Part shown: piece by piece, positions 1 to 6,955 of the stretch
Position numbering within the stretch: the first letter of the stretch is position 1
Layout of the letters: each line of letters opens with the position of its first letter
Translations under genes and position numbers: made by a program
Notes under the pieces: generated by a model
Databases searched by the model: none
Told to the model about the DNA's origin: nothing
What the model saw: the letters and a program-made list of their open reading frames with translations, nothing else
Virus genome (UHGV): UHGV-0274038
Source: a virus
Length of the DNA stretch: 24,177 nucleotides
Strand: one strand, 5' to 3'

Positions 1-100
1 CGAAATGTTTTATAACAGTAAGCGTCGGCATGGTTCTAGCGAACAGATGTCACCGACAGAATATGAAAACCAGTATTATCAACGGCTCGGAAGTGTCTAG
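1..100 (+). CDS. IS3-family (rve/DDE) transposase, C-terminal end only; 5' part lies outside the window
   Basis: Frame 2 reads ...FYNSKRRHGSSEQMSPTEYENQYYQRLGSV then stop at 98..100. The YN-x-RRH ... SP-x-E-[FY]-EN pattern resembles the C-terminus of IS3-group OrfB transposases. Exact IS identity not determined. Confidence 0.55.
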   Translation, partial: EMFYNSKRRHGSSEQMSPTEYENQYYQRLGSV

Positions 101-150
101 ATTATCCGTGGCGATTCAAGACGCAGTCTTTCCCAGAATGCACTTAGCCA
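1..150 (+). mobile_element. Right end of an IS3-family insertion sequence; right boundary approximate (about 135..152)
   Basis: Transposase stop at 100 followed by about 50 nt ending ...CTTAGCCA(CA), consistent with the TG...CA termini of IS3-family elements. Immediately abuts an ORF that is open upstream into the IS. Confidence 0.45.
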
Positions 151-151
151 C

Positions 152-451
152 ATGTGGTACAGCGAAATCAGTGAATACCTCATAAGCAGGGGGAAATCGT
201 TCGCTACTGCAGCATGGGTAAAAGATGCTCTCAAACACACATACCTCGGTTATGAAACCAAAGACCTGGTTGATGTCGTAACCGGTGAAATCACCACTAT
301 TCAGTCGTTACGCCATACCTCCGATCTTGATACCGGAGAGATGTATGTCTTCCTGTGTAAGGTTGAAGCCTGGGCGATGAATATTGGCTGCCACCTGACT
401 ATTCCGCCGAGCTGCGAGTTCCAGCTGCTGCGCGACAAGCAGGAGGCGTAA
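152..451 (+). pseudogene. ybcN-like nin-region gene, C-terminal fragment; apparently truncated at its 5' end by the IS
   Basis: The 99-codon ORF sits directly upstream of ninE-ybcO-rusA, the position ybcN holds in DLP12. The reading frame stays open upstream to the transposase stop at 98..100, so the first ATG at 152 is probably not the native start. Family assignment is by synteny only. Confidence 0.45.
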
Positions 452-621
452 TGGCTACACCGCTTATTCGTGTCATGAATGGGCACATTTACAGAGTACC
501 AAATCGTCGTAAGCGTAAACCTGAGCTGAAGCCTTCCGAAATACCAACACTGCTCGGATATACCGCCAGCCTGGTTGATAAAAAATGGTTGCGACTGGCA
601 GCAAGGAGGAATCATGGCTGA
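451..621 (+). CDS. ninE: NinE-like small basic protein (56 aa)
   Basis: Translation MATPLIRVMNGHIYRVPNRRKRKP...[16 protein letters not shown]. Size, basic composition and position between the ybcN-like gene and ybcO match NinE. Start overlaps the upstream stop (TAATG); end overlaps the ybcO start. Confidence 0.55.
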   Translation: MATPLIRVMNGHIYRVPNRRKRKPELKPSEIPTLLGYTASLVDKKWLRLAARRNHG

Positions 622-904
622 TTTGAGAAAAGCAGCGCGTGGTCGGGAATGCCAGGTAAGAATCCCTGGCGTATGTAATGGCAACCCTGAAACGTCTGTA
701 CTGGCACATATCCGGCTGGCTGGATTGTGCGGCACCGGTATTAAACCGCCAGACCTTATTGCCACCATTGCCTGTTCTGCCTGTCACGACGAAATCGACC
801 GCCGCACGCATTTTGTCGATGCTGAGTACGCAAAAGAATGCGCGCTGGAAGGTATGGCGAGAACGCAGGTTATCTGGCTGAAAGAGGGGGTTATTAAGGC
901 GTGA
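614..904 (+). CDS. ybcO: YbcO (DUF1364) putative nuclease, 96 aa
   Basis: [42 protein letters not shown]...[14 protein letters not shown] with Cys/His-rich motifs. Recognised from recall of DLP12 YbcO. The six-frame ORF begins 13 codons earlier; ATG at 614 chosen. Confidence 0.8.
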
Positions 905-1263
905 ATACCTACAGCATCACATTACCCTGGCCTCCGAGCAATAATCGCTATTACCGCCATAATCGCGGGCGCACGCACGTCAGCGCAGAGGGGCAGGCAT
1001 ACCGCGATAACGTCGCCCGAATCATTAAAAACGCAATGCTGGATATCGGCCTGGCTATGCCTGTGAAAATCCGCATTGAGTGCCACATGCCGGATCGCCG
1101 TCGCCGTGACCTGGATAATCTGCAAAAAGCCGCTTTTGACGCACTCACTAAAGCAGGTTTCTGGCTGGATGATGCTCAGGTCGTTGATTACCGCGTTGTG
1201 AAGATGCCTGTTACCAAAGGTGGGAGGCTGGAACTGACCATCACCGAAATGGGGAATGAATGA
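901..1263 (+). CDS. rusA: RusA Holliday-junction resolvase, 120 aa
   Basis: [38 protein letters not shown]... matches recalled RusA. GTG start overlaps the ybcO stop. Confidence 0.9.
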
Positions 1264-1400
1264 TGTTTGAGTTTTATATGGCAGAACTTCTTCGCCACCG
1301 CTGGGGGCATCTGCGCTTATATCGTTTCCCCGGTTCTGTTTTGACCGATTACCGAATACTGAAGAATTACGCCAAAACCCTGACAGGAGCAGGAGTATGA
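1260..1400 (+). CDS. ylcG: YlcG-like small protein, 46 aa
   Basis: [52 protein letters not shown] start overlaps the rusA stop. Position between rusA and Q as in DLP12. Confidence 0.65.
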
Positions 1401-1485
1401 AGTCAGAGATAACAATCAACTAATACTGTTTTGTTGATTTTTGCTTGTAATTGGCGTTCTGGTCTGATTTTTGTGGAGTAAGTTG

Positions 1486-1869
1486 ATGCGTGATATTCAG
1501 ATGGTTCTTGAGCGTTGGGGAGCGTGGGCGGCTAATAATCATGAAGATGTGACCTGGTCGTCCATTGCCGCCGGTTTTAAGGGATTAATTCCTTCAAAAG
1601 TAAAATCTCGCCCGCAATGTTGTGACGATGACGCGATGATCATTTGCGGGTGCATGGCCCGTCTGAAAAAGAACAACAGCGATTTGCACGATTTATTAGT
1701 AGATTATTATGTAGTCGGTATGACATTCATGTCACTGGCAGGTAAGCATTGCTGCTCTGATGGTTATATCGGGAAAAGGTTACAAAAGGCTGAGGGCATA
1801 ATTGAAGGGATGTTAATGGCATTAGATATCCGGTTAGAGATGGATATCGTTGTTAATAACTCTAATTAA
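1486..1869 (+). CDS. Q: Late-gene antiterminator Q (phage-21/DLP12 QuuD-like), 127 aa
   Basis: [26 protein letters not shown]...[16 protein letters not shown]... is the last gene of the nin module before the lysis region. ATG at 1486 preferred over the upstream TTG at 1471 used by the ORF track. Confidence 0.8.
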
Positions 1870-1890
1870 TACGCCAATTATTTACTAAAA

Positions 1891-1920
1891 GTTATTAAAA
1901 ATGGGGCGTTGAAACGCCCC
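1891..1920 (-). terminator. Intrinsic terminator for the minus-strand porin transcript
   Basis: GC stem GGGGCG/CGCCCC (1903..1908 and 1915..1920) with a 6-nt loop. On the minus strand it is followed by a U-run (complement of TTATTAAAAAT, 1892..1902). Confidence 0.5.
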
Positions 1921-2057
1921 CAAAAATACAGGGTAATATATAACAGAAGGTTTGTATAGTTAGAAGCAAGGTTGTGCTTCTAAAGGAAGTGGCTTGAGGG
2001 AGCCACTTATATGTTGGGGAGGCAAAGCCTCCCACAACATATCTTTTAGTAATCAAA
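1893..2057 (-). ncRNA. ipeX: Candidate 3'UTR-derived sRNA of the porin gene (IpeX-like)
   Basis: About 165 nt between the porin stop (2058) and the minus-strand terminator contains three further stem-loops (about 1961..1980, 1991..2010, 2016..2033). DLP12 is known to encode the sRNA IpeX from the nmpC 3' region. Homology not verified. Confidence 0.35.
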
Positions 2058-3140
2058 TTAGAACTGGTAAACCATACCTACAGCAACGATATCATCGGTA
2101 GCAACGCCAGATGCTTTCGTGAAATCGCTCTTATCAATCAGGTTGATTTTGTAGTCAACAAAAGTGGACATATTTTTGTTGAAGTAATAGGTTGCACCTA
2201 CATCAACATATTCAACCAGGTCCTGATCACCCCAAACACCCAAGTCTTTTCCTTTAGAATGCAGGTAAGCAACGGATGGACGCAGGCCGAAGTCGAACTG
2301 ATATTGTGCAACAGCTTCGAAGTTTTGTGCTTTGTTGGCAATATGGTTATTACCAAAAACAGTCATGTTCTGGGTTTCAGAATAGGTGGTGGCCAGATAG
2401 ATGTTGTTCGCATCATATTTCAGACCAGCTGCCCATACTTCAGCATTTTGACCAGAAGCATTCAGACCGTTGTTACCGTAGATAACCTGATTATTAGTGC
2501 GATCAGATTTAGCATAGGTTGCACCCACGCCGAATCCTTCATACTCATAAGTAGTTGAGAAACCGAAACCATCGCCATTAGCTTCAGTTACTTCATTTCG
2601 GTCATTTTTGCCCTGATACTGAGCTGCAAAGTTCAGGCCATCAACCAGACCAAAGAAGTCGTTGTTACGATAAGTTGCAACACCTGTGGTGCGACCAGTC
2701 ATGAATACATCTGTTTGGGTCCAGGTATCGCCACCGAATTCTGGCAGAACGTCGGTCCATGCACCAATATCGTATGCTACACCGTAGTTACGGCCATAAT
2801 CGATGGAGCCGTAGTCACCGAATTTCAGGCCAGCGAAGGCAAGACGGGTTTTATCTTTGGAGGAACCTTGAGATTCAGCGCGGTTGCCTTTGAATTCATA
2901 TTCCCACTGACCGAAACCAGTCAGTTGATCGTTGATTTGGGTTTCACCTTTGAAGCCAAGACGGGCATAAGTAGTATCACCATCATCTGCATCATTAGAG
3001 GAGAAGTAGTGCTTAGCATTAACTTTCCCGTACAGATCCAGCTTGTTACTGTCTTTATTATAAATTTCAGCTGCCTGAGCAGACATCGCCATCAGTACTG
3101 ATGCAGCTACAGCAGAAATTGCCACTGTTAATTTTTTCAT
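2058..3140 (-). CDS. nmpC: Outer-membrane general porin, NmpC/OmpD/OmpC family (360 aa), prophage moron
   Basis: Signal peptide [23 protein letters not shown] then AEIYNKD...; aromatic-rich beta-strand pattern and C-terminal ...VAVGMVYQF typical of 16-strand porins. Antisense to the phage genes, between Q and the lysis cassette as in DLP12. Confidence 0.9.
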
Positions 3141-3504
3141 CGTGAGCCCTTTTTTTTGAACTATTATTAAAAAATGATGTCACTGCGCGATAAATATTCA
3201 TCTAATCAATGTGATTATTTCAAGATGTAAGTTTTGGTTTCTCGTTTAATTTGTGAAGTAGATCTCTATTTTTATCTGAACTTTTTTCTATCGAATCCTA
3301 TTCATGGCTCTTGGCTGAATAAAAATAAATCTATTAGCCAATTTATATTAATGGCTGTTATTTATAAGTGCTCTATAATTTGAAGGTTCAATTTAAATTG
3401 GCTAAAAATAACGCTGGAAATTATTTGTTGGTTATTTGTTGAGATTTGCTTATGTATTTGTAGTGGTGTTTTCAATACTCGGTAGCATTCTCGCAAATAT
3501 CATT

Positions 3505-3545
3505 TAGTGGTTTACGTACGTAAAAAATTGGTTATGCTGTTAAGA
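3505..3545 (+). promoter_or_regulatory. Candidate late promoter pR' with Q-utilisation region (position approximate)
   Basis: Possible -35 TTTACG (3511..3516) and -10 TATGCT (3533..3538) with 16-nt spacing, about 30 nt upstream of a strong terminator hairpin. A short terminated leader RNA ahead of S is the classic pR'/qut/tR' arrangement. Promoter elements are weak matches. Confidence 0.3.
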
Positions 3546-3568
3546 GTGGTTACTTCGTCACACAGCGT

Positions 3569-3601
3569 AAACCCGCCGTCGAGCGGGTTTTTCCATTTTT
3601 T
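3569..3601 (+). terminator. tR'-like intrinsic terminator upstream of the lysis cassette
   Basis: Stem AAACCCGC/GCGGGTTT (3569..3576 and 3583..3590), 6-nt loop, followed by TTCCATTTTTT. Confidence 0.55.
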
Positions 3602-3713
3602 GAGTCTCGATATTAGCTGATAACCCAATACCTGAGTTATTCACTGACTCCGAGTCTGTTACGTTTCGTAGTATTCCCTCAATTTACACCCGCTTTGTCT
3701 GCGAGGTGGGGTT

Positions 3714-3929
3714 ATGAAATCCATGGATAAGTTAACAACGGGTGTCGCCTATGGCACCTCAGCAGGTAGTGCCGGGTACTGGTTTTTACAGCTGCTCGAT
3801 AAAGTCACGCCCTCACAGTGGGCAGCAATAGGTGTGCTGGGTAGCCTGGTATTTGGCCTGCTGACGTACCTGACAAACCTTTATTTCAAGATTAAAGAAG
3901 ATAAGCGCAAGGCTGCGAGAGGTGAATAA
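3714..3929 (+). CDS. S: Class II holin, phage-21 S-type pinholin (71 aa) with dual-start motif
   Basis: [71 protein letters not shown]. Two transmembrane segments; Met1-Lys-Ser-Met4 allows holin and antiholin starts. Close to recalled S21. SD GAGGTGGGG upstream. Confidence 0.9.
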
Positions 3930-4426
3930 TGCCTCCATCATTACGAAAAGCTGTTGCTGCTGCTATTGGTGGCGGGGCTATTGCTATAGCATCTGTGTTA
4001 ATCACTGGCCCAAGTGGTAACGATGGTCTGGAAGGTGTGAGACATAATCCTTACAAAGACATAGTTGGTGTATGGACTGTATGTTACGGGCATACAGGAA
4101 AAGACATCATTCCCGGTAAAACGTATACCGAAGCAGAGTGCAAAGCCCTCCTGAATAAAGACCTTGCCACTGTCGCCAGACAAATTAACCGGTACATCAA
4201 AGTCGATATACCGGAAACAACGCGCGGCGCTCTTTACTCGTTCGTCTACAACGTGGGTGCTGGCAATTTCAGAACATCGACGCTTCTTCGCAAAATAAAC
4301 CAGGGTGATATTAAAGGCGCATGTGATCAGCTACGGCGCTGGACATACGCTGGCGGTAATCAATGGAAAGGACTGATGACTCGCCGTGAGATTGAGCGTG
4401 AAGTCTGTTTGTGGGGGAAACAATGA
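3929..4426 (+). CDS. R: SAR endolysin, phage-21 R-type lysozyme (165 aa)
   Basis: N-terminal Gly/Ala-rich signal-anchor-release segment ([18 protein letters not shown]) followed by T4-lysozyme-type catalytic region (GLEGV...D...T). Start overlaps the S stop (TAATG). Confidence 0.9.
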
Positions 4427-4881
4427 GCAGAGTAACCGCGATTATCTCCGCTCTGGTTATCTGCATCATCGTCTGCCTGTCATTGGCTGTTAATCATTAC
4501 CGTGATAACGCAATCGCCTACAAAGAGCAGCGCGATAACAAGGCCAGTGAACTGGAGAAGGCGAACGCCACCATCGCTGACATGCGGAAGCGTCAACGTG
4601 ATGTAGCAGAACTCGACGCAAGATACACAAAGGAGCTTGCTGATGCTAACGCGACTATCGAAAGTCTCCGTGCTGATGTTTCTGCTGGGCGTAAGCGCCT
4701 GCAAGTCGCCGCCACCTGTGCAAAGTCAACGACCGGAGCCAGCGGCATGGGCGATGGAGAAAGCCCAGGACTTACAGCAGATGCTGAACTCAATTATTAC
4801 CGTCTCCGAAGTGGAATCGACAAGATAACCGCGCAGGTTAACTACCTGCAGGAATACATCAGGACGCAATGCCTGAAATAA
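4423..4881 (+). CDS. Rz: Rz inner-membrane spanin subunit (153 aa)
   Basis: [26 protein letters not shown]... single N-terminal TM helix then a coiled-coil periplasmic domain. ATG at 4423 preferred over the ORF-track start at 4411. Confidence 0.85.
4637..4828 (+). CDS. Rz1: Rz1 outer-membrane lipoprotein spanin subunit, embedded in the +1 frame of Rz
   Basis: Signal peptide with lipobox LLGVSAC, then Pro-rich [13 protein letters not shown]. Strong SD AAGGAG 7 nt upstream of the ATG. Lies entirely inside Rz. Confidence 0.75.
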
Positions 4882-4913
4882 TTTTTTTGCAAATCACAAA
4901 GTCCATTTAATGA

Positions 4914-4937
4914 GCCTCGCGATGCGGGGCTTTTTTT
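4914..4937 (+). terminator. Intrinsic terminator ending the lysis operon
   Basis: 7-bp stem GCCTCGC/GCGGGGC (one G-U pair), 3-nt loop, followed by T7 (4931..4937), 33 nt after the Rz stop. Confidence 0.6.
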
Positions 4938-5086
4938 ACATCTGAATTTCACAGCGCATCTCACGCGCATATTACATCACCCGAGCCTTTCAGAAAGTTG
5001 AGCCTGAGAACTGCCGTATATGGTGGCGACCATCTCGGGGCGGCTTTTCTGTGAGACAGGCTCACTTTCTAAAAGGTAAAGACGCT

Positions 5087-5575
5087 ATGAACCAATTAGA
5101 AGAAAAGCTTCAAAGAATGATTTCCTTATACAAGGAAGATAACTGCCAAAAAGTTCCTGAAAACATCGCAGAGTTAATGGAATTGGCAAGTGAATTTTCT
5201 GGCATGCTTAAGTCGTCAGGTGTTCGGTCAGCGTTCTTTGTTGAAATGCTGATGCACGGCGGACTTATGGCAACAATGAGACGTGTAATGGAAGACCAGA
5301 GAAAAGAACCTCCTCAGGTATACGTTTTGTCATCGAAGAAAACTGGGCTAACCAAAATTGGGTATTCATCCAACATTCCACAACGCATCAAATCGCTTGG
5401 CAACTCTGGACCAGACTGCTTGAAGCTTGAGTGCCTGATCCCTGGTGGAAGAGAAACTGAAAACATGCTTCATCGCAAATTTGCCGCAAAGAGAAAGCAC
5501 GGTGAATGGTTCGCCCTGTCCAAGGATGACATTGAGGGATTGAAATCTGTAGCGATTACTTCTGATGGCTATTAA
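5087..5575 (+). CDS. Accessory protein with C-terminal T5orf172 (GIY-YIG-like) nuclease domain and unrecognised helical N-terminal domain (162 aa)
   Basis: C-terminal half QVYVLSSKKTGLTKIGYSSNIPQRIKSLGN...ENMLHRKFAAKRKHGEWFALSKDD fits the T5orf172/Mug113 pattern (YVL...GL-KIG-S...R...E-LH-F...GEWF). N-terminal about 85 aa has no family I recognise. ATG at 5087 with AAAGG upstream; the ORF-track start at 5051 is non-ATG. Confidence 0.65.
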   Translation: MNQLEEKLQRMISLYKEDNCQKVPENIAELMELASEFSGMLKSSGVRSAFFVEMLMHGGLMATMRRVMEDQRKEPPQVYVLSSKKTGLTKIGYSSNIPQRIKSLGNSGPDCLKLECLIPGGRETENMLHRKFAAKRKHGEWFALSKDDIEGLKSVAITSDGY

Positions 5576-6253: not shown

Positions 6254-6664
6254 TTAGTGCGGAAATATTTGTGTAGTGTTCTGAATGTTCTCAGTAAAGA
6301 GTAATGAATTATCAAAGGTATAGTAATACCTTTTGTTTTCGTGGATATTTGTAATCCATCTGAAAACCCCTGCTGTAGCAAGATTTTTCCTGTATTCGTA
6401 AAATGATAACTCTCCTGATTTGAATCCTTTTAATGTGGCTTCTATAAGGCATTTATTTTTTGAAAATCTTACATTTACAACCTTACCCTGTCCTTTTATT
6501 AAAACCGTATTATCGTTTTCAAGAACAAGATGAATATTCTCTGTGGCTAAATAGTAAATGTAATGTGAGACATTGTGACGTTTTAGTTCAGAATAAAACC
6601 AGTGATAGTTTAAATTATTTCGCACTTTATCGAATATTTGTTTAAAAATGGCAACCTGAGCCAT
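6254..6664 (-). CDS. ybcV: YbcV-like protein (DUF1398), 136 aa
   Basis: [58 protein letters not shown]...[25 protein letters not shown] matches recalled DLP12 YbcV. SD GGAAGG 7 nt upstream of the internal ATG chosen as start. Confidence 0.8.
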
Positions 6665-6721
6665 TGTAGTACCTTCCATGTGATATGAAGGTACCTAGTC
6701 TGCACGATTATCTAAATTGCT

Positions 6722-6955
6722 TCAATCTGGTCTGACCTGCTTTCTGAGCAATTCAGTAATGTCACTCTTTTCTTTGTTTGCTTCAGGCGAAACTCTTTTT
6801 TCTGAGCACAGTCTTCGGCGGCAGGCTTCAATGACCCAGGCTGAGAAATTCCCGGACCCTTTTTGATCAAGAGCGATGTTAATTTGTTCAATCATTTGGT
6901 TAGGAAAGCGGATGTTGCGGGTTGTTGTTCTGCGGGTTCTGTTCTTCGTTGACAT
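6722..6955 (-). CDS. ylcI: YlcI-like small protein (DUF3950), possible ribbon-helix-helix DNA binder, 77 aa
   Basis: MSTKNRTRRTTTRNIRFPNQMIEQINIALDQKGSGNFSAWVIEACRRRL... has a strand-helix-helix pattern. Sits upstream of ybcV on the same strand, next to cos. Confidence 0.6.
   Translation of the reverse strand: MSTKNRTRRTTTRNIRFPNQMIEQINIALDQKGSGNFSAWVIEACRRRLCSEKRVSPEANKEKSDITELLRKQVRPD

Follow-up and report, generated by a model that had tools for sequence, protein, structure and literature searches.

Introduction

Where does late transcription start in a prophage whose antiterminator gene Q is separated from the lysis genes by a porin gene on the opposite strand? The question is raised by the virus genome UHGV-0274038, of which a stretch of 24,177 nucleotides was analysed; this whole stretch is referred to below as the window. 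An earlier note, made from the letters alone, had placed a late promoter and a tR'-like terminator downstream of the porin gene rather than directly after Q. We find that positions 3510-3592 very probably constitute a Q-dependent late control cassette, comprising pR', a Q-engagement region and a tR'-like terminator, and that this cassette is set 1.64 kb from Q because a porin moron occupies the slot between Q and the Q target. The features discussed are collected in Table 1.

Table 1. Positions of the features discussed, numbered from the first letter of the window.
Feature	Position	Strand	Basis or remark
IS-type transposase, last 32 codons, ending ...FYNSKRRHGSSEQMSPTEYENQYYQRLGSV and stop	1-120		Weak rve_2 match
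Q antiterminator, QuuD type, 127 aa	1486-1869	+	PF06530, E=8.5e-54
Cargo slot with porin moron (Q tail, hairpin cluster, porin, porin promoter region)	1846-3509	.	blastn breakpoints
Four stable hairpins, from Q to the porin stop codon	1903-2040	.	Folding of both strands
Porin minus-strand terminator	1920-1903	-
Last post-Q hairpin	2009-2040	+	Followed by AUCUUUU
Intact OmpC/NmpC/Lc-type porin, 360 aa	2058-3140	-	PF00267, E=3.6e-152; antisense to Q and late genes
AT-rich porin upstream/promoter region, 365 bp, GC 0.29	3141-3505	-
Perfect 14-bp palindrome TTTACGT/ACGTAAA, including the -35	3511-3524	+	Candidate Q-binding element, centred at -27.5
-35 hexamer TTTACG	3511-3516	+	Aligned with Stx-phage pR'
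-10 hexamer TATGCT	3533-3538	+	Aligned with annotated -10 TATCAT of Stx-phage pR'
Invariant core TAAGAGTGGTTAC	3541-3553	+	-4 to +9; invariant in BLAST-retrieved alignment; single copy in window
Predicted late transcription start, A	3545	+	Homology to L007:646 (Sakai Sp5); 7 nt after the -10
Intrinsic terminator, tR'-like	3569-3601	+	Stem 3569-3590; U-runs 3588-3592 and 3596-3601
S21-type holin/antiholin	3714-3929	+	PF04971
SAR endolysin	3929-4426	+	PF00959
Rz/Rz1	4423-4881	+	PF03245

Results

Prophage context and late genes

The window is a lambdoid prophage of the DLP12/933W type. It begins with the remnant of an IS-type transposase gene, and an IS insertion just left of the ybcN-like gene has probably cut off the early region of the prophage. 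Rightward from the remnant, the ybcN-like gene is followed by ninE, ybcO, rusA and ylcG, and then by Q. To the right of the lysis genes lies a complete lambda-like packaging, head and tail region (Nu1, terminase A, tape measure), on the same strand as the promoter block.

Several further features of the late region were observed. The ribosome-binding site and dual start of the holin gene (ATGAAATCCATG), at 3690-3720, are located inside a predicted stem (CACCCGC...GCGAGGTG), an arrangement similar to the RNA structures by which lambda S and S21 control their holin/antiholin ratio. A strong plus-strand terminator was found directly 3' of Rz, inside the late operon, at 4912-4941 (nine pairs including six G-C, seven U). 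It stands before the terminase and structural genes, which polymerase should be able to reach only in its Q-modified form. Additional cargo is present between the lysis and packaging genes, within 5051-5575 and 6254-6955, consisting of a sense T5orf172/MUG113 (GIY-YIG-like) gene and two antisense genes (DUF1398, DUF3950).

The Q antiterminator

The Q protein of the window scored 181 bits against PF06530, for which the cut-off is 26, and matched the Q21 chains of the PDB (6P18/6JNX) with E=7.6e-8 over residues 8-87. It is 79-81 % identical to the Q proteins of Stx phages. PF06530 corresponds to the "Q21 family" of Ebright's group, while Q82 belongs to PF06323 (PMC9388147). On the evidence of its profile, the window Q belongs to the Q21 family; the Q82 family was ruled out, PF06530 being the sole profile reported for the protein. 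With regard to the comparison with phages 21 and 82 suggested in the earlier note, phage 21 is a suitable comparator, since it shares the Q family, although 933W and H-19B are closer; phage 82 was dropped because its Q falls in PF06323.

Conservation of Q with its relatives stops at codon D120 (...LEMD, nt 1843-1845), and the last seven codons are insert DNA. The Q proteins of the group were seen to have a common sequence up to ...LEMD, followed by unrelated tails of 0-24 residues (L007, L019 and L099 compared with window 1846-1869). These tails are set by whatever DNA comes next, which makes it probable that the tail is dispensable. In 933W, the Q tail is encoded by the promoter itself.

The porin insert and the hairpins after Q

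The boundaries of the insert were determined with blastn against a cargo-free relative, Sakai (L007), and two relatives with other cargo (L103, L009). Homology at the DNA level breaks off at 1844/1845, is found again from 3510/3511 and stops at 3592. The insert between the first two breakpoints measures 1.66 kb, exhibits a GC content of 0.29-0.44 against 0.53 for the whole window, and leaves 1,641 nt between the Q stop codon and the -35 hexamer. The separation of Q from its target by about 1.7 kb of antisense porin DNA, as described earlier, agrees with these measurements. The porin is annotated as OmpC, OmpD or NmpC in homologous records. In K-12, deletion of positions -199 to -1 of nmpC abolishes the activity of PnmpC (PMC11677980). 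At the same junction between Q and the promoter block, relatives have 0-10 nt or other cargo. Sharp breakpoints at 1845/3510, deviant GC content, a promoter of its own (shown in K-12) and its own terminators on both strands mark the insert 1846-3509 as a moron.

The extra hairpins that the earlier note had seen after Q are real: folding gave -72 kcal/mol on the plus strand and -68 kcal/mol on the minus strand, with z about -9 (z = -9.6 on the plus strand for the 188 nt after Q). They are most simply read as the 3' end of the porin gene and not as part of the Q target, and they probably represent the porin 3' UTR/IpeX region and a two-way transcription barrier. We take IpeX of DLP12 to lie just after the porin stop codon, in which case it would fall on the hairpins at 1903-2040. 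Reviews trace IpeX, an RNA of 167 nt, to processing of the phage porin transcript.

A conserved block with a probable promoter between porin and holin

A sensitive search with the spacer between porin and holin retrieved 353 phage records, and in most of them the match was limited to 3510-3592. The blastn breakpoints delimit this conserved island of 83 bp, which opens with the first base of the -35/dyad and closes where the U-run stops. In Stx phages (933W/H-19B/Sakai) and in SfII, pR' and the first terminator have been annotated at the 3' end of Q, and the island shares 77-89 % identity with them. In phages of the 933W/H-19B type, the match coincides with the features "pR' putative late promoter" and "possible rho-independent terminator"; the latter annotation is carried by the homologue of the window hairpin in Stx phage 06-3462.

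The two hexamers are separated by 16 nt and match the consensus at 8 of 12 positions, below the threshold of 9 of 12 used in our promoter scan, which is why the scan did not list them and why "weak promoter-like hexamers" was an apt description. As the scan found only 5 promoter-like sites against 11.3 expected, hexamer consensus alone performs no better than chance, and it is the homology, rather than the hexamers, that appears to lift the promoter call above chance.

The core TAAGAGTGGTTAC is likely to be the pause and Q-engagement region, although this assignment is a prediction. A convincing extended -10 or a canonical TAnnnT pause element was not found within +1 to +15 of the window. The candidates are TACTTC at +7 to +12, without the key final T, and TAAGAG at -4 to +2, which straddles the start site; Stx phages read TACATT where the window has TACTTC. 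The K-12 RefSeq record has no promoter, terminator or ipeX feature annotated at this locus. A scan of the whole window at the Rfam gathering thresholds gave no match, and when 1850-3750 was scanned permissively, the hits did not rise above chance level (TarB, E=0.62; Trp_leader, E=0.61), so that there is no curated Rfam family for the leader or for the post-Q hairpins.

The predicted late start site

Among the homologues of the block, pR' of Sakai Sp5/Sp15, the source of the StxS RNA, is a Q-dependent late promoter mapped by experiment (PMC7547250). For this Stx-phage late RNA, Sy, Lan and Tree (PMC7547250) located a primary 5' end by dRNA-seq and, 258 nt further along, a 3' end by Term-seq, and RNase E cuts it at GU/AUU, at +173 (PMC7547250; the slash marks the cut). 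If the start is set at L007:646 in Sakai Sp5, 7 nt after TATCAT, then +173 is the U of AGU/AUUG and +258 is the last U of the second terminator (tR'). The two independent published distances both land exactly, which confirms the Sakai start. By homology with it, late transcription in the window would start at about A3545, equivalent to position 577,229 of K-12 MG1655 (NC_000913.3).

Alternatively, late transcription could start right after Q and read antisense through the porin gene, the block being a leftover or an internal attenuator. In the canonical cassette (lambda, phage 21, 933W), pR' does abut Q, and N-modified early transcription through Q could in principle run on rightward. However, the core is present in a single copy in the window, and the promoter scan found no plus-strand promoter-like site within 1870-3505, that is, between Q and the block. 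Read-through would also meet the four very stable hairpins directly after Q, one of which is a plus-strand hairpin followed by UCUUUU. Among the matches listed in our survey of relatives, the block was located downstream of the insert in all 82 insert-bearing loci. Finally, a terminator placed in the nmpC/quuD spacer of K-12 was without effect on the downstream read-out, from which the authors concluded that transcription does not traverse the spacer (PMC11677980). We therefore regard a start directly after Q as highly improbable. The earlier proposal that late transcription need not cross the porin gene is supported: with the moron between Q and pR', it would never have to do so.

Terminator and predicted leader

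The stem at 3569-3590 has eight pairs, five of them G-C, and a loop of six, and is followed by TTCCATTTTT (the sequence 3' of the stem is also given as UUUUUCCAUUUUUU). Its first run of five U is followed by CCA and then by six U. RNAfold gave -12.0 kcal/mol and z = -3.5, with 1 of 200 shuffles as stable. The intrinsic terminator announced in the earlier note is accordingly present, but "strong" was a generous word for a hairpin with a run of only five U; tR' of phage 21 reaches -18.4 kcal/mol with seven U. The terminator ends 112 nt before the holin ATG, close to the 110 nt estimated earlier. The leader from start to terminator is predicted to measure about 48-57 nt. The idea that this is the short terminated leader on which Q acts gains from the homology to the mapped Sakai Sp5/Sp15 pR', while the efficiency of termination is uncertain, the Stx hairpin being read through.

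In Sakai Sp5, the first hairpin after pR' (L007 669-696) is the homologue of 3569-3590 and a good-looking terminator, with -12.6 kcal/mol and seven U. The 258-nt pR' RNA nonetheless ends at the second terminator (L007 876-903); either the first terminator is leaky or RNAs of about 50 nt escaped detection. In the window, the terminator scan found no second terminator between the block and the holin gene. As the Stx homologue does not stop all transcripts and no second terminator precedes the holin gene, termination at 3569-3601 may be leaky, and the missing second terminator makes some constitutive expression of the lysis genes plausible. Such expression would fit the phenotypes reported for DLP12 lysis genes in uninduced K-12. 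In a common DLP12-type variant, found in at least 14 loci (L013, L023, L029, L043 and others), GCTGG replaces GCGGG in the 3' arm of the stem, and the predicted stability falls from -12.0 to -5.8 kcal/mol; the lysis genes may be less tightly shut off in prophages with this variant.

These observations bear on a second alternative, according to which the block is a true homologue of pR' but its hairpin is inefficient. The promoter would then yield constitutive low-level lysis expression, a small regulatory RNA or both, with Q doing no more than raising the output. The position of the Sakai homologue inside the 258-nt transcript, the modest hairpin with its five U, the lack of a back-up terminator before the holin gene and the GCTGG stem mutation are all in its favour, as is the expression of DLP12 lysis genes, with phenotypes, in uninduced K-12, as reported in PMC7918800. 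On the other hand, RNAs of about 50 nt are easily lost from dRNA-seq and Term-seq libraries, for which reason the 258-nt RNA says little about the efficiency of read-through. The hairpin and U-tract are, moreover, kept or functionally replaced in essentially all variants, and unregulated expression of holin and endolysin should be selected against in an inducible prophage. We consider this alternative unlikely, although it is the most probable of those discussed here.

According to a report cited in PMC7918800, the DLP12 lysis cassette has a sigma-E promoter, which raises the further possibility that the cassette is driven mainly by a host-controlled promoter elsewhere in 3141-3713, Q and pR' being vestigial. 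The IS element that probably cuts the left end of the prophage also speaks for this view. Nevertheless, Q is intact and, among the matches listed, 99-100 % identical to the Q of many IMG/VR phage and prophage contigs; the block is likewise intact, the late region is complete, and named phage genomes such as ev243 and PhiR70_1 carry the module with 99 % identity. A sigma-E promoter would also add to a Q-dependent promoter and not replace it. A vestigial Q/pR' is thus improbable, and Q-dependent control at 3510-3592 remains the preferred explanation.

A palindrome that varies with the Q type

Variation of the block was assessed in 68 distinct variants from 128 loci (the IMG/VR matches listed and phage loci). 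The invariance of the core in this large set is partly by construction, the loci having been retrieved with the core pattern. At the -10, TAnnnT is present in 56 of the 68 variants (121 of the 128 loci), CAGTAT in six variants and TATTGC in one. The stem of the hairpin is kept while its loops vary, and in several loci an unrelated hairpin with a U-tract is present instead, slightly downstream. Since the -10 is retained and the hairpin can be replaced by an unrelated one, conservation appears to be functional rather than of sequence.

In the -35 region, the variants exhibit a perfect palindrome of 8-16 nt with an A-tract behind it; its centre is at -27.5, at a distance of 23 or 23.5 nt from the core on the upstream side. 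A cluster-specific perfect palindrome with the same centre was found in 13 of 15 Q clusters, and the palindrome is imperfect in clusters Q7 and Q14. The types, with the centre marked by a slash or by the unpaired base, include TTTACGT/ACGTAAA in the window, TTTACGA/TCGTAAA in 933W, GCGT/ACGC, GCGG-T-CCGC, TGGAA/TTCCA, TGTTA/TAACA and ATTCGT-T-ACGAAT. Each Q cluster at 90 % identity has one palindrome family, which is exact in about 100 of 105 loci with full-length Q, the rest being single-base variants. Where Q clusters have a palindrome in common, they also agree in the second helix of an HTH-like segment (residues ~88-100 in the window Q), for example ...SHTQ(I/V)LKRLQ with GGAATTCC. The sequence 3' of the hairpin reassorts more freely, with 9 and 5 types within two Q clusters.

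The palindrome is, on these alignments, a candidate Q-binding element. Its concordance with the Q clusters was considered as proof of Q binding and downgraded, because shared descent gives the same pattern; insertions between Q and the block leave their linkage unbroken, so that shared descent could explain the concordance. If the palindrome is indeed recognised, the geometry of binding would be unlike that of the direct-repeat QBE of phage 21, and the sequence of the palindrome would specify the late promoters, those of stx included, that a given Q activates.

Relatives and the cargo slot

Scanning IMG/VR with the core pattern yielded at least 120 loci, and a PF06530 Q was located upstream of the block in 110 of them among the matches listed. 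In 28 of these 110 loci, the -35 hexamer is found at -25, -13 or +6 to +10 nt from the Q stop codon, and in the other 82 the distance is 0.6-2.9 kb. A displaced promoter is thus what most of the sampled relatives have, and the layout is not unusual.

The slot contains at least 24 unrelated types of cargo, of which 21 have antisense genes only, with a GC content of 0.31-0.45. PADLOC assigned cargo to Kiwa KwaB (2e-126), PDC-S20 (2e-176), PDC-M53A (in phage SfII) and PDC-M68A. The cargo seen in relatives comprises Kiwa (KwaA/KwaB), the KAP NTPase of PDC-S20, the HNH protein of PDC-M68A and lipoproteins. Several cassettes of unknown function were also noticed, among them a small membrane protein with a protein of about 300 aa, and unknown two- and three-gene cassettes. 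Taken jointly, these data suggest that the junction between ...LEMD and the late promoter is a dedicated, independently filled slot for defence and moron cargo and that the allele-specific palindrome is the recognition code for Q, a combined proposal that we make tentatively and towards which we lean slightly less than away from it. A statement of the junction as a defence hotspot was not found in a full-text literature search, and no description of the allele-specific palindrome was found in the literature searched; an earlier description of either is possible.

Of 5,426 complete E. coli genomes, 2,394 (~44 %) cover at least 80 % of the module, K-12 with DLP12 among them; in NZ_OY754409.1 the identity is 100 %. 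The module was also seen in 36 phage records with 91.6-99 % identity, and most of these are complete genomes of named phages (ev243, PhiR70_1, mEp332, 434B). Since these records were deposited as named phage genomes, the layout probably supports lytic growth.

Discussion

Our analysis suggests the following course of events. Sigma-70 polymerase would start at about A3545 from TTTACG-16-TATGCT and, without Q, would produce a leader of about 50 nt, terminated at 3592-3601 by the hairpin 3569-3590 with its U-run. Once expressed from the early rightward transcript, Q would bind the promoter region, probably at the palindrome 3511-3524, and load onto the early elongation complex, rendering the polymerase resistant to terminators. 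The modified polymerase would then read through 3569-3601 and later terminators, such as 4912-4932, across more than 20 kb of lysis and morphogenesis genes. The porin moron, which is self-contained and antisense, fills the interval that separates the Q target from the last conserved codon of Q.

For the annotation of the window, the matter can be considered settled, with the late start at about 3545 and not after Q, and with the porin as an independent insert. The displaced late promoter is correct but already known in substance, as the module is widespread, Q control of the DLP12 lysis operon has been published and the Stx-phage promoter has been mapped. With the module in ~44 % of complete E. 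coli genomes and its Stx homologue mapped, the result has little reach beyond the window. Of wider interest is the slot upstream of the late promoter, which gathers antisense cargo, defence systems among it, and might be a place to look for new systems. A Q-allele-specific palindrome would in addition predict the compatibility of Q with promoters, which bears on the levels of Shiga-toxin expression among Q alleles.

Comparison with known systems

The Stx phages 933W, H-19B and Sakai Sp5/Sp15 offer the closest comparison. Their block is homologous over 83 bp (77 %), with the same TTTACG, a 16-nt spacer and TAnnnT, and they share with the window the identical 13-mer TAAGAGTGGTTAC and the hairpin stem CCCGCC/GCGGG. 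Their palindrome differs in the two central bases (ACGA/TCGT instead of ACGT/ACGT). In Stx phages, the promoter overlaps the last Q codons (gap of -13 nt), whereas in the window it is 1,641 nt away. The Stx block is followed by a further ~200 nt and a second terminator, the end of the 258-nt RNA, while that of the window leads straight to the holin gene. The Stx cargo (tRNAs, stx) is sense and downstream of pR', in contrast to the upstream, antisense cargo of the window.

Phage 21, the archetype of Q21 (PDB 6P18/6P1A), has a Q of the same family, although only distantly related to that of the window, a leader of about 50 nt, and an S21-type holin and SAR endolysin downstream. Its annotated genome exhibits a -35 of TTGACA, with QBEu ATTGAGCA and QBEd AATGAGCA between the hexamers and a terminator ending near +50. 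The QBE of phage 21 is a direct repeat (ATTGAGCA/AATGAGCA) at -27 to -12, whereas the palindrome of the window spans -34 to -21. The SDPE of phage 21, TAAGCTG, is found at +2 to +8 and the TAAGAG of the window at -4 to +2; TAAG is common to both, near the start of the transcribed region. In phage 21, 7 nt separate the Q stop codon from the start of pR', while pR' of the window is not adjacent to Q.

K-12 DLP12 (quuD-nmpC-essD) and the qsr'-type recombinant 434B contain the same module, and the DLP12 promoter block is identical at 43 of 43 nt. DLP12 has an IS5 in its porin gene and lacks most late genes, in contrast to the intact porin and full late region of the window. Its lysis operon is under the control of a Q-type antiterminator, as reported in PMC7918800, which cites Rueggeberg 2013.

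The porin unit resembles phage morons in the sense of Hendrix and Juhala: it comes with a promoter and terminators of its own, is less GC-rich, is absent from the junction of close relatives, and does not depend on the neighbouring phage operons for its transcription. The classical lambda morons (bor, lom), like stx, are located inside the late operon, whereas the slot described here lies just upstream of the late promoter and its cargo is almost always antisense. In lambda itself, pR'-qut-6S RNA-tR' comprises a constitutive late promoter and a short terminated leader, and Q loaded at the promoter yields a terminator-resistant polymerase. The window follows the same logic, although lambda Q is unrelated (PF03589) and there is no sequence similarity. 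The lambda leader measures 194 nt and its pR' is adjacent to Q, compared with a predicted leader of about 50 nt and a pR' that lies 1,641 nt from Q in the window.
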